Assembly: GCA_016840095.1 (NCBI GenBank)
Contig: JAEOSZ010000066.1
Coordinates: forward strand, 32,001-96,000
DNA length: 64,000 bases
DNA from: Candidatus Heimdallarchaeota archaeon
GTDB lineage: Archaea; Asgardarchaeota; Heimdallarchaeia; Heimdallarchaeales; Heimdallarchaeaceae
Direction: 5' to 3'
The notes beneath the pieces are model-generated. The model had not been told where the DNA came from. It worked only from the letters and a program-made list of their open reading frames with translations, and did not search any database. The position numbers were made by a program, and so were the translations under genes. This document shows positions 12,796 to 17,748 of the stretch, piece by piece; the stretch's first letter is position 1, and each line of letters opens with the position of its first letter.

Positions 12796-15700
12796 GTGGA
12801 TAACGAGAAACAAGTATTTGAGTCAGTTAAAGCTTTACCTTCATTTTCTAAAGACGAGGAAGAAACATTGACTTTCTGGGAAGAAAATAAGGTATTTGAT
12901 AAACTAAGAGAGATGAGAAAAGGAAGCCCGTTATTTAAATGGTTAGAGGGCCCTCCAACTGCAAATGGTCTCCCTCACATTGGACATGCTTTAACTCGAG
13001 CAATCAAAGATGTATTTCTTAGACATAAGTCAATGCACGGATTTGAAGTTGTACCTTGGGTTGCAGGATGGGATTGTCATGGACTTCCTGTCGAACTAGA
13101 AGTAGAAAAAACTCTTGGATTTACAGACAAAAGCCAAATTGAAGAATTTGGAATGGTAAACTTCAATGCAGAATGTAGAAAATCTGTTTTCAAATATGTT
13201 AAAGAATGGCGTGAGATGTCTGAACGCATAGGTTTCTGGGTTGATTTCGAAAACAGATATGCTACTCTAGATGAAAACTATGTTGAAAGCGTTTGGTGGT
13301 CATTGAAGGAGATAGACAAAAAAGGGTTGCTATACTTAGGATATAAAGTAGTTCCCTATTGTCCAAGATGTGGAACTCCACTATCTTCTCATGAAGTAGG
13401 ACAAGGGATGATGGAAACAACAGACCCCTCAGTTTTTGTTAAAATAAAAGCAGAAGGTTTTGAAGATACATACTATCTAGTTTGGACAACTACACCATGG
13501 ACACTAATATCAAATGTTTGTATAACAGTACACCCAGATATTGATTACGTTCAAGTAGAATATAATGGAGAAAAATTGATTCTAGCTGAGAAGAAAGCAG
13601 ATGAACTTCTAGAAACATATGCCGTTCTACAAAAATTCAAAGGAAAAGATCTGGAATATAAAAAATATGAACAACTTTTCCAATATATAGTACCTGAAGA
13701 AGATGCTTTCTATGTAACTCTTGCAAATTATGTAACCACAGATGAAGGAACAGGTATTGTTCATTCCGCCCCAGCTTTTGGAGAGGATGATGCTGAAATT
13801 GGAAAACAGTATGGATTACCTGTAATGAATCCAGTTCTAGAAGATGGAAGTTTCTCAGATGAAATTGTAGATTTTGCAGGTTTATTTGTTAAAGATGCAG
13901 ATCCCAAAATAATGGATAACCTAAAGGAAAGAGGTTTGCTTTTCAAGAAAGGAGTGTATAAACACATATATCCGTTCTGTTATCGTTGTGATGGTCCGCT
14001 TCTGTATTATTCTACAGAAACATGGTACATTGAAATGTCTAAAATGCGAGATAGATTAGTAGCAAACAATGACCTAGTAAGATGGCAACCTGCACATCTC
14101 AAGAAAGGTAGATTTGGAAACTTCATCGAAGAAGTAAGAGATTGGGCACTTTCTCGAAATAGATTTTGGGGAAGCCCACTTCCAATATGGTTATGCGAAG
14201 ACAATCATAAAACAGTTATTGGTAGTAGAAAGGAACTAGAAGAATTATATGGTAAACCTCTAGCTAAAGACTTCAGTTTACATAGACCTTGGGTAGATGA
14301 AATAACCTTTGACTGTCCTGAGTGTCAGAAGAAAGCTGAAAGAGTGCCATATGTTATAGATTGTTGGTATGATGCAGGAAGTGCACCTTTTGCTCAATAT
14401 CATTATCCATTTGAGAATAAAGAATTGTTTGACAAGCATTTCCCATATGATTTCATAACAGAAGCAATAGACCAAACAAGAGGTTGGTTTTACACTCTTC
14501 TAGCAATAAGCACAGTTCTATTCGATAAACCAGCTTATCTAAACTGTTTAACTATGGGACATACATTAGATGCTAAAGGAAAGAAAATGAGTAAAAGCAA
14601 GGGGAACATGATCCGCGCTAATGAAGTTATACCAGAATATGGCGCAGATGCTGTGAGATGGTTCCTATATTCATACCCTACATGGAACAGTGTGAGAGTT
14701 GATCCTGAGCAAATATACGAAACAATGAAGAAATTCATACTTACACTCTGGAACAGTTATAGTTTCTTTGTATCAAATGCTAATGTGGATAATTTTGATC
14801 CTAAAACATTCAATGTTCCGTTAAACGAGAGACCAGAACTCGATAAATGGTTAATAAGTGAAGTTAATTATTTAGCAAAAACCATAGATGATGCATTAGA
14901 AAACATGACTGTACATATAGCAGCTCAAGCTTTTGAGAAATTCGTCATTGATAAATTCAGTAATTGGTATCTTCGACAATCTCGTAGAAGGTTCTGGAGA
15001 GGAGAACTGGACACAGATAAGAAATCTGCTTATGTAACAACATATGAAGTATTAGTAAAACTATCTAAGATGTTAGCTCCTTTCATTCCTTTCATCTCTG
15101 AGAAATTACATCAGAATTTGGTAAGAAGACTAGATTCTGAAGCTGCTTTAAGTGTGCATTTCCTTGATTATCCAACCATAAATAAAAAGGAAGTAGATGC
15201 CAATCTTTCAAGGGATATGAATAAAGTACTTTCGCTAGTTACAGCAGGAAGAAGTATACGATCCTCAGCAAATATAAAATTGAGACAACCTCTTTCTGAA
15301 CTCATATTGATATCTCCTCTTGGAAAGAAGGATTTGATAGAGAAATATGAGGAAGTCTTCAAGGAAGAACTGAATGTAAAGAAGATAACTCTTAGCAAAA
15401 GCTCTGAAGAACTGGTAAATTATACAATAAAACCAAATTTCAAGGTATTAGCTCCCAAAGTCAAATCAGCTGTTAAAGGAATAGGAAAGGAACTAGAAAA
15501 ACTAGATTCTGACAAGACCAAGGAGTATGTTGAAATGTTAGCAAAAGGTGAATCAATAGTTATAACAGCAGATGATACAGAGTTTCAACTCACTCCAGAC
15601 GACCTGGAATACAGAATAGAGGTTCACGAAGGATTTGCAGGTGAAGAAGCTGAAGGATACCTATTGCTTTTCAATTCAACAATTACTGATGACCTTAAAC

Positions 15701-15954
15701 AAGAAGGATATGTTAGAGATATAATCAGACGAGTTCAAACAATGAGAAAAGAACTGGATCTCGAATACACTCAGAAAATTGTTCTCTCTGTCGAAGTAGA
15801 TGAATTTGGAAAAGAAGCTCTAAAGAAATTTAAAGAGTACATCAAAGAGGAAACCCTAAGCAAAGAGATGGAATTCACAAAACCAAAGGAAGGACTGATC
15901 AAAGACTGGAAATTCGATGAGTTTGAGGTAACTATTGGAGTAAAACCTCTCTAA
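12796..15954 (+). CDS. ileS: Isoleucyl-tRNA synthetase (archaeal/eukaryotic type 2)
   Basis: GPPTANGLPHIGH, GWDCHGLP, WTTTPWTL, GTGIVH.AP, DWALSRNRFWG, DQTRGWF and KMSKS. Confidence 0.97.
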   Translation: MDNEKQVFESVKALPSFSKDEEETLTFWEENKVFDKLREMRKGSPLFKWLEGPPTANGLPHIGHALTRAIKDVFLRHKSMHGFEVVPWVAGWDCHGLPVELEVEKTLGFTDKSQIEEFGMVNFNAECRKSVFKYVKEWREMSERIGFWVDFENRYATLDENYVESVWWSLKEIDKKGLLYLGYKVVPYCPRCGTPLSSHEVGQGMMETTDPSVFVKIKAEGFEDTYYLVWTTTPWTLISNVCITVHPDIDYVQVEYNGEKLILAEKKADELLETYAVLQKFKGKDLEYKKYEQLFQYIVPEEDAFYVTLANYVTTDEGTGIVHSAPAFGEDDAEIGKQYGLPVMNPVLEDGSFSDEIVDFAGLFVKDADPKIMDNLKERGLLFKKGVYKHIYPFCYRCDGPLLYYSTETWYIEMSKMRDRLVANNDLVRWQPAHLKKGRFGNFIEEVRDWALSRNRFWGSPLPIWLCEDNHKTVIGSRKELEELYGKPLAKDFSLHRPWVDEITFDCPECQKKAERVPYVIDCWYDAGSAPFAQYHYPFENKELFDKHFPYDFITEAIDQTRGWFYTLLAISTVLFDKPAYLNCLTMGHTLDAKGKKMSKSKGNMIRANEVIPEYGADAVRWFLYSYPTWNSVRVDPEQIYETMKKFILTLWNSYSFFVSNANVDNFDPKTFNVPLNERPELDKWLISEVNYLAKTIDDALENMTVHIAAQAFEKFVIDKFSNWYLRQSRRRFWRGELDTDKKSAYVTTYEVLVKLSKMLAPFIPFISEKLHQNLVRRLDSEAALSVHFLDYPTINKKEVDANLSRDMNKVLSLVTAGRSIRSSANIKLRQPLSELILISPLGKKDLIEKYEEVFKEELNVKKITLSKSSEELVNYTIKPNFKVLAPKVKSAVKGIGKELEKLDSDKTKEYVEMLAKGESIVITADDTEFQLTPDDLEYRIEVHEGFAGEEAEGYLLLFNSTITDDLKQEGYVRDIIRRVQTMRKELDLEYTQKIVLSVEVDEFGKEALKKFKEYIKEETLSKEMEFTKPKEGLIKDWKFDEFEVTIGVKPL

Positions 15955-16017
15955 TATTTCTCTTTTTATTCAAACTCATTAAAAGTAATAAATAAAAACT
16001 TCAAAGTTAACAACAAT

Positions 16018-16077
16018 GTGGCGATGATTAAACCGTCCCAGACTGAAATGTGATGTTCTCACGACGATATGAGCCAC
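16018..16077 (+). ncRNA. Box C/D guide sRNA (predicted LSU rRNA Gm2251 and U2593 region, E. coli numbering)
   Basis: Terminal stem GTGGC/GCCAC; C box ATGATTA (16024), D' CTGA (16043), C' GTGATGT (16050), D ATGA (16069). Guides are complementary to conserved LSU rRNA CUGGGGCGGU and CGUCGUGAGA. Confidence 0.85.
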
Positions 16078-16164
16078 CATAATTTTTTCAATGGTTTTTA
16101 TTGTAGTATAAATAAGATTCAACAAATCATAAAAGTTAATTAGTTTCTGTTACCCCAGATAATT

Positions 16165-17748
16165 GTGATTAATCAAGATCCCAATTTTACGGAGATTCTA
16201 TATCATCAACCTGGTCATCTAAGAAGTGTTAATGTCATCAGGGAATTTGATGGTTATATCTTAACTGGAGGGCAAGATGGAAGAATCTGTATTTGGGATT
16301 TAGATTTAGAGAAAGAACTAGGATGTATTTTTGCGCATAACTCATCTATTTCAGATATTCAGAAGCTGGAAAATCTAAATTTAGTACTATCCACTGCTTT
16401 AGATTTAGATCTAAAAGCATGGTCATTAGTTGATTTTTCTAAAATAGAAAAACAAAAAGCCCACATATCTTCTATTATAGGAGCTAAACCTCTAAACGAT
16501 TTTATAATTTCTATAGGAAGAGATGAACGACTAAGAAAATGGAAAATTGAGAATGGAAATTTCAAACTTCTTGCAAATACGAAAATACTAACTATGCGTC
16601 AAATACTCTCTTTGGATGACAGAATATTGATTTCTTGTCAAGAAGGAGACAAGTTCATTCTGGATACTGAGAACCTCAAAGAAGAAACAACGCTTTTTGT
16701 AAATGATTCCAAAGTTATTAAAGCCATAAAAAAATCTTCAAAATATTTAAAGGAATTTGCAAATAAGGATCCCCATACCATACTTTTTCAATTATCTAGA
16801 AGAAATGGGTTCCCTGCAATATCCAGTACAATAACTAATGATCAATTCATATTGGGGCATGAATTTGGTTTCGTTTCTGTTTGGCAAAGAGATACTCTGA
16901 AATTATCTAAGGTTTTCTTTGTTCATGAAAAACACATTACTGGAATAGAAATATTGGATAATGTTCTCTATACAATTTCATTAGATTCAACAATCTCTAC
17001 GTTTGATATAGAATCACAAAAACCCATTAAATCTTTCAAGTTAAAATCAAAACCATTATCACTACTAAAGACATCAAAAGAAGAATTTGTTGTAGGTTTA
17101 GAAACAGGTGAATTGTTGGTTTTTGACTCACAATTGGTCCATATCAATTCTCAAATGAATATAAAGTTGATATCTGGATCAGCAATAACCTCTGATAGTC
17201 TTGCCTTCGCATTAAATTCAGGAGATATTGTTTTATTAAATAGCGAAAATCTGGAGATTATAAAACAAAAGAAAATCCATGAGAAAAACATTCATGGACT
17301 TTTTTTCTATGATGGTAGATTGATTTCTGTTGGAGATGACAAACGAGTGGTTATATTAGATTCTAACCTAGATATCATCAAAGAAATCGAGTTTGAACAT
17401 AAAATTATCAACTCAAGACAAGTAAAGCATTATATTACTTTAAATTCCAATCATGTTTTAGATCTTCGGAAAGATGAGGTAATCAAGGGGGAAATATCAA
17501 AGGAAACAGAAGATGAGATGAAGAGAATTAATCCGCTAGATTATGAACTAGTAAAAGGGGATATTCGAATTAAAATAAACAACGATATTCTTCGAAAATT
17601 CACAAAAGATGAGCTAAATGAGATGTACAAAGGAAAAATTTGGGAATCACTGGAAAAACTCTCAAAAGCAAAGGTTAATTCATTTTATCTCCAGGAAAAC
17701 GAATTTTTTGTTATCTCAAAAAGATTGAAAACAACAGAAAAAGAATAA
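16165..17748 (+). CDS. WD40-repeat beta-propeller protein
   Basis: GH...LTGGQDGRICIWD, AH...DLDLKAWS, AH...DERLRKWK and further degenerate repeats. Confidence 0.85.
   Translation: MINQDPNFTEILYHQPGHLRSVNVIREFDGYILTGGQDGRICIWDLDLEKELGCIFAHNSSISDIQKLENLNLVLSTALDLDLKAWSLVDFSKIEKQKAHISSIIGAKPLNDFIISIGRDERLRKWKIENGNFKLLANTKILTMRQILSLDDRILISCQEGDKFILDTENLKEETTLFVNDSKVIKAIKKSSKYLKEFANKDPHTILFQLSRRNGFPAISSTITNDQFILGHEFGFVSVWQRDTLKLSKVFFVHEKHITGIEILDNVLYTISLDSTISTFDIESQKPIKSFKLKSKPLSLLKTSKEEFVVGLETGELLVFDSQLVHINSQMNIKLISGSAITSDSLAFALNSGDIVLLNSENLEIIKQKKIHEKNIHGLFFYDGRLISVGDDKRVVILDSNLDIIKEIEFEHKIINSRQVKHYITLNSNHVLDLRKDEVIKGEISKETEDEMKRINPLDYELVKGDIRIKINNDILRKFTKDELNEMYKGKIWESLEKLSKAKVNSFYLQENEFFVISKRLKTTEKE

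Follow-up and report, generated by a model that had tools for sequence, protein, structure and literature searches.

Whether the 60 nt lying between two protein-coding genes of an uncultured Asgard archaeon encode a guide RNA for ribosomal RNA modification, and which nucleotides of the 23S rRNA such a guide would address, is the question raised by positions 16018-16077 (forward strand) of the window, i.e., the whole 64,000-nt stretch of Candidatus Heimdallarchaeota DNA analysed here. A sequence-only reading had proposed an unannotated box C/D sRNA at this locus, with a D' guide directed to a "universal" Gm2251 in the P loop and a D guide directed to Um2593. We consider it highly probable that the locus encodes a C/D sRNA with, probably, its own promoter, whose D' guide would address G2251 and whose D guide would address U2460 in helix 89 and maybe also U2593 in helix 93 (E. 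coli numbering throughout). Direct support comes from the anatomy of the sRNA, its conservation, the covariation of its terminal stem, the complementarity of its guides to 23S rRNAs of the same genus, one compensatory change between guide and target, and the protein machinery of the genome.

The 60-nt sRNA reads GUGGC-g-AUGAUUA-AACCGUCCCAGA-CUGA-aau-GUGAUGU-UCUCACGACGAU-AUGA-GCCAC, and its parts are as follows:

16018-16022, forward strand, 5' half of the terminal stem, GUGGC, forming 5 bp with 16073-16077
16024-16030, forward strand, C box AUGAUUA, a RUGAUGA variant with U at position 6
16031-16042, forward strand, D' guide AACCGUCCCAGA, antisense to the 23S P loop (helix 80), with the G2251 equivalent at N+5
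16043-16046, forward strand, D' box CUGA, read from the sequence
16047-16049, forward strand, D'-C' spacer AAU, 3 nt here and 3-8 nt of variable sequence among homologues
16050-16056, forward strand, C' box GUGAUGU, read from the sequence; the D' and C' boxes are conserved in congeners
16057-16068, forward strand, D guide UCUCACGACGAU, antisense to the 5' strand of helix 89 and to helix 93
16069-16072, forward strand, D box AUGA, a CUGA variant with A at position 1; AUGA in 22 of the 23 genus copies
16073-16077, forward strand, 3' half of the terminal stem, GCCAC, pairing with 16018-16022

The sequence was found to be as the sequence-only reading had described it, and its claim of a genuine unannotated C/D sRNA, without an Rfam match, held. 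Both guide spacers are exactly 12 nt long, as they are in every genus copy; spacers of 13 nt occur in genomes G039 (D' side) and G021 (D side). The RUGAU of the C box is invariant across the aligned genus copies, and the D' box is CAGA or CGGA in some congeners, degenerate D' boxes being usual. In the geometry of a K-turn, the 4b.4n pair consists of C-box position 6 and D-box position 1. Here, the C and D boxes deviate at one position each and the two deviant positions pair with each other (U6-A1), within a K-turn that can be read from the sequence as GUGGC / 3-nt loop GAU / G.A, A.G, U.U, U-A / GCCAC. The earlier suggestion of a compensatory U-A pair replacing G-C is structurally right, and the exchange was seen in 22 of the 23 genus copies. 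This box variant is not new, however, as it is already in the published Pyrobaculum set, where sR118, sR32 and sR120 have AUGAUUA, AUGAUUG or GUGAUUU as C box, each with AUGA as D box, like the window's sRNA. Searching the whole 64-kb window with Rfam 15 at the gathering threshold matched no family, which places the sRNA outside every catalogued Rfam C/D family. C/D sRNAs have little secondary structure and are not expected to fold stably alone, so that the single-sequence fold, which was no better than that of shuffles (z = -0.3), is uninformative.

The sRNA occupies a 210-nt gap between the isoleucyl-tRNA synthetase gene ileS (12796-15954) and a WD40-repeat gene, in the following setting:

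15987-15999, forward strand, putative TATA/BRE-like promoter AATAAATAAAAAC, centred ~26 nt upstream of the sRNA 5' end
16083-16088, forward strand, run of six T, read from the sequence as a possible archaeal terminator
16165-17748, forward strand, WD40 beta-propeller protein of 527 aa, encoded directly downstream of the sRNA

The A/T-rich block AATAAATAAAAAC is kept at a fixed distance in 23 of 23 genus copies while the surrounding flank varies; it fits an archaeal TATA box and may serve as the promoter of the sRNA. The six-T run is present in close relatives only, and models of sigma-70 promoters and intrinsic terminators are not applicable to archaea. An arrangement with the WD40 gene 3' of the sRNA was seen in four genera. 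The best Pfam similarities of the WD40 protein are to the propellers of WDR3, Utp21 and Prp19, all so far under the cut-offs that no function is implied.

Conservation is the strong evidence for the sRNA. It was found in 23 of the 25 genomes of the same genus, and a covariance model built from 19 copies matched 27 of 30 genomes of the same family (the window's own genome excluded), with weak matches in two further families of the order and, under strict filters, none in four other families of the class. In a sister genus, two complete genomes hold extra, weaker matches to the model (G041:C1:1990533-1990598 and G042:C1:2147872-2147937; E ~1e-5 to 1e-4), which may be paralogous or merely similar C/D sRNAs. 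Across relatives, boxes and guides hardly vary, while the flanks cannot be aligned; over the same genome set, amino-acid identity drops to 56-67% for the neighbouring IleRS and to 32-50% for the WD40 protein. Indels of 1, 2 and 5 nt in the D'-C' spacer of homologues are not multiples of three and exclude a coding frame. The terminal stem reads GUGCC/GGCAC, GGAGC/GCUCC and GGGGG/CCCCC in distant homologues, with all 5 pairs changed on both sides among homologues and 92% of cells paired, a value equalled by 0 of 500 shuffles; the alignment used here was fitted to the covariance model, which favours structure, and slid controls were far lower.

Chance matches were gauged in two ways. A strict pattern (four boxes, 11-13-nt spacers and a stem of at least 4 bp), which is no census of C/D sRNAs and gives no frequency for the U-A box variant, had two matches across the 3.4-Mb genome and none once the genome was reversed. 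Shuffled guides found an equally good rRNA site in 35 of 500 cases for the D' guide (7%) and in 50 of 500 for the D guide (10%); because shuffles do this well, guide complementarity, which alone is only mildly unusual, is not used as our main argument. We regard it as very improbable that the element is no guide at all and serves instead a neighbouring gene, WD40 or ileS, as a conserved cis-regulatory or untranslated-region element, or is a chance motif: although the WD40 gene lies downstream in four genera and the single sequence folds no better than its shuffles (z = -0.3), stable folding alone is not to be expected of a C/D sRNA, the genome has two instances of the four-box architecture with 12-nt spacers and its reverse has none, the pattern of conservation is that of guides and boxes, and the same pair of guides recurs in a thaumarchaeotal sRNA described below.

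If the element is a C/D guide RNA, its targets have to be sought in relatives. The organism's rRNA had been noted to lie outside the window, and the whole assembly, a metagenome-assembled genome (MAG) of 165 contigs and 3.4 Mb that is 89% complete, also lacks 23S and 16S genes. Five congeneric species supplied the 23S target sequences, the window's own 23S being unassembled, and E. coli numbering was checked against rrlH, which gave G2251 (D' guide), U2593 (D guide, helix 93) and U2460 (helix 89) as N+5 partners. For the D' guide, the proposed target was borne out: AACCGUCCCAGA pairs with ACUGGGGCGGUA of the same-genus 23S over 10 bp, with one G.U and with G2251 at N+5, and is antisense to CUGGGGCGG with the second G at N+5. 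Same-register variants in the family keep 10-11 bp with the P loop, except in G001, which has one internal mismatch. Other changes of the D' guide are C/U swaps opposite the G run, which leave every pair intact and shift the wobble from G2253 to G2252, and the 13-nt spacer of G039 shifts the predicted P-loop site to G2250. The prediction of Gm at the G2251 equivalent by the D' guide is supported.

Calling this Gm universal, as the sequence-only reading did, was an overstatement, since Grosjean et al. 2008 (PMC2584109) listed nothing at 2251, hence no Gm, in Haloarcula marismortui and placed its Gm1950 at E. coli 1909, in helix 69. We dropped the equation of H. marismortui Gm1950 with G2251 on the strength of that placement. 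Table 1 of a review (PMC11542601) equates this Gm1950 with E. coli Gm2251, contrary to PMC2584109, while the remaining position offsets in the table agree with Grosjean et al.

Guides against the same nucleotide have been predicted in other archaea. Dennis et al. 2015 (PMC4644070) predicted methylation of G2520, which corresponds to E. coli G2251, in three archaea, the guides being Pyrobaculum calidifontis (Pca) sR36, Thermoproteus tenax (Tte) sR7 and Methanopyrus kandleri (Mka) sR13. Pca sR36 contains the 9-mer CCGUCCCAG, identical to that of the window's D' guide, in the same register, one nt from CUGA, and with its U.G wobble likewise opposite G2253; CCGUCCCAG is present too in Thermoproteus sR107 and Ignicoccus sR410. 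The P-loop guide sequence is not new, having been published for distant archaea (Dennis et al. 2015, PMC4644070). Pca, Tte and Mka are hyperthermophilic Thermoproteota or Methanopyri, and the window's organism an Asgard archaeon; in the former, the P loop is matched by the D guide, next to another second guide (U2544), and in the window's sRNA by the D' guide.

A scan of species-representative genomes with the pattern ACCGTCCCAGNCTGA returned, among the matches listed, mostly chance bacterial ones; five archaeal matches were examined, and the same P-loop guide was found, among the matches listed, in C/D sRNAs of a Thaumarchaeota MAG, two Micrarchaeota MAGs and an Ainarchaeum MAG. The first of these is the following:

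WALT01000015.1, locus L109:1448-1514, unannotated C/D sRNA of the Thaumarchaeota MAG, 43.8 bits against the covariance model

Its layout and both of its guides, D' CAACCGUCCCAGU-CUGA and D CCUCGCGACGAU, are as in the window's gene, whereas its boxes and stem differ (C box AUGAAGC, D box CGGA, stem GGGGG/CCCCC), and the guides are known from the gene alone, the corresponding 23S being unassembled. This suggests that the two-guide combination of a P-loop guide with CCUCGCGACGAU is old or has arisen twice.

In all P-loop guides seen, one of the four G's of the P loop faces a U; this G is G2253 or, in some genera, G2252. For the window's sRNA, this feature is:

16036-16037, forward strand, U opposite a P-loop G, also present in homologues and in Pca sR36, Tte sR107 and Iho sR410

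The fully complementary 9-mer, CCGCCCCAG, is absent from the 489 sRNA sequences of Dennis et al. 2015, supplementary file 1. Because the genome scan pattern ACCGTCCCAGNCTGA itself required the P-loop U, the DPANN and Thaumarchaeota P-loop guides are not independent evidence for this wobble U.

The same P-loop nucleotide is modified by eukaryotic snoRNAs and by bacterial RlmB, a likeness of target site and not of compared sequences; yeast Gm2619 was assigned to snR67 by the sequence-only reading. According to PMC11542601, Arabidopsis Gm2620 is RNA-guided, with yeast Gm2619 and human Gm4196 as its equivalents, and RlmB is the protein-only enzyme for this nucleotide in E. coli. Since P-loop guides are found across archaea, the Asgard case points to no special link with eukaryotes. 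In the window's genome, fibrillarin and Nop5 are encoded by adjacent genes and L7Ae is encoded as well. No RlmB was found in this 89%-complete genome, where the best SpoU protein scored 57 bits vs an RlmB cut-off of 160, and the sole clear SpoU-family protein is of the TrmJ/YjtD type (189.5 bits); a protein-only route to Gm2251 was not found among its genes.

For the D guide, the proposed Um2593 stood in part. The guide does pair with helix 93 over 10 bp and places U2593 at N+5, but the genus sequence is CGUUGUGAGA and not the consensus CGUCGUGAGA, so that one pair is G.U, and the site is not the sole predicted target, since helix 89 is equally good. The helix 93 duplex (E. coli 2589-2600) has a predicted energy of -15.4 kcal/mol with 9 Watson-Crick pairs and 1 G.U, and the duplex with GUUGUCGUGGGU in the 5' strand of helix 89 (E. 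coli 2456-2467) one of -15.1 kcal/mol with 8 Watson-Crick pairs and 3 G.U, placing U2460 at N+5. The two rRNA stretches resemble each other, so the guide that pairs with helix 89 may pair with helix 93 too. The same two-site ambiguity is already in the published predictions, as Dennis et al. 2015 (PMC4644070) listed both U2734 (= U2460) and U2867 (= U2593) for the D guide of Tte sR17, and U2867 for Pca sR17 and Mka sR68. The sR17 D guides (Tte and Pca) and the Mka sR68 D' guide have the core CUCGCGACG or CUCACGACG, akin to the CUCACGACG of the window. The Pyrobaculum sR17 D guide, CCUCGCGACGGA, is homologous to the window's D guide, and helix 93 is its perfect 10-bp match, in line with the published prediction; position 8 is G in the Crenarchaeota (target C) and A in the window's sRNA (target U), and the partner guide differs.

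Variation within the family separates the two sites. Both rRNA target segments are unchanged in the family and it is the guide that varies. The helix 89 duplex is kept in every family variant (-12.3 to -18.4 kcal/mol), with guide positions 9-11 always pyrimidines opposite the GGG of helix 89. The helix 93 pairing is lost in six variants (G005, G036, G032, G041, G042 and G039; -6 to -9.9 kcal/mol), mostly by mismatches within the duplex; four of the six have C10 opposite A2598 and five A3 opposite C2591, with the pairing of G036 and G032 lost also at the far end of the guide. In G019, from a second family, target C2463 goes with guide G8, vs U2463 with A8 in the window's lineage, a guide-target change that, on the sequences compared, is compensatory. 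The weak homologue in G021, from a third family, likewise has a guide G opposite C2463 and, one position out of register, forms 10 bp with helix 89, with no fit to helix 93. Retention in all variants, together with the guide-target changes in G019 and G021, points to helix 89 as the target conserved across the order. By the same comparisons, the D guide would not have Um2593 as its unique target, and the conserved target is probably another.

We find it doubtful that the D guide targets helix 93 (Um2593) only and matches helix 89 simply because the two rRNA segments are similar. In the window's genome, the helix 93 duplex is the one with the fewest wobbles (10 bp, one G.U); guide G3 and U10 form Watson-Crick pairs there and wobbles with helix 89, U10 is kept in the Thaumarchaeota copy and in Pyrobaculum sR17, and U2867 (= U2593) is the prediction of Dennis et al. 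2015 for Pca sR17, Tte sR17 and Mka sR68. Yet six family variants lose helix 93 while keeping helix 89, the G021 guide fits helix 89 alone, and the G019 guide changes together with C2463 of helix 89. It is possible, and we put it forward tentatively, that a single 12-nt guide has been selected to serve both U2460 and U2593; such a dual guide would be ancient (Asgard, Thaumarchaeota and Thermoproteales) and would have disappeared from some Asgard genera with the change of position 10 to C. We retain helix 89 as the favoured target of the D guide, with helix 93 as a possible second one in the window's lineage.

The 23S genes of the family have a further peculiarity near this site. An AU-rich insertion of 344-401 nt interrupts the C2452/A2453 junction, in the loop of the peptidyl transferase centre, in 8 of the 8 family 23S genes with both flanks located (L004:4051-4430 in the G002 23S; likewise L002, L005, L007, L073, L074, L077 and L078), and its 3' end lies 3 nt upstream of the helix 89 target. 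The helix that closes the insertion covaries (UGCGC/GCGCA, UACAC/GUGUA, UGCGU/ACGCA and UGUGC/GCACA), which makes it probably an rRNA intron. G019 is without an insertion at C2452/A2453 and has another insertion inside helix 89.

Taken as a guide RNA with these targets, the sRNA would be transcribed, probably from its own promoter, and would fold with a K-turn at its C/D boxes and a K-loop at its C'/D' boxes. It would assemble with L7Ae, Nop5 and fibrillarin, and the resulting RNP would pair, close to the peptidyl transferase centre, with domain V of the nascent 23S, where fibrillarin would methylate the ribose opposite the fifth guide nucleotide. Through the D' guide, fibrillarin would in this way reach the guanosine of the P loop that corresponds to E. 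coli G2251, and pairing of the D guide with the 5' strand of helix 89 would lead to methylation of the U2460 equivalent; in the window's lineage, the D guide may also pair with helix 93 at the U2593 equivalent. We give little credence to the view that the RNP is mainly a folding chaperone that holds helix 80 together with helix 89/93, with methylation secondary or absent at one site. Its targets are ~200-340 nt apart and all in the region of the peptidyl transferase centre, which makes some helper role in folding possible, and Dennis et al. 2015 (PMC4644070) propose such a role for dual guides with distant but spatially close sites; against this, most lineages keep the register and with it the identity of the nucleotides at N+5, a sign that the position to be methylated is important.

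Judged from its sequence and from those of its relatives, the gene is a genuine, previously uncatalogued C/D sRNA of a well-known type, and our understanding of C/D RNPs is unchanged by it. What it provides is a well-supported guide RNA annotation for an uncultured Asgard lineage. Together with the crenarchaeal, DPANN and Thaumarchaeota guides, it indicates that RNA-guided P-loop methylation, as predicted, is widespread in archaea and no speciality shared by Asgard archaea and eukaryotes. Finally, its D guide offers a concrete case in which to ask if a single guide of an archaeon can act on two sites close to the peptidyl transferase centre.
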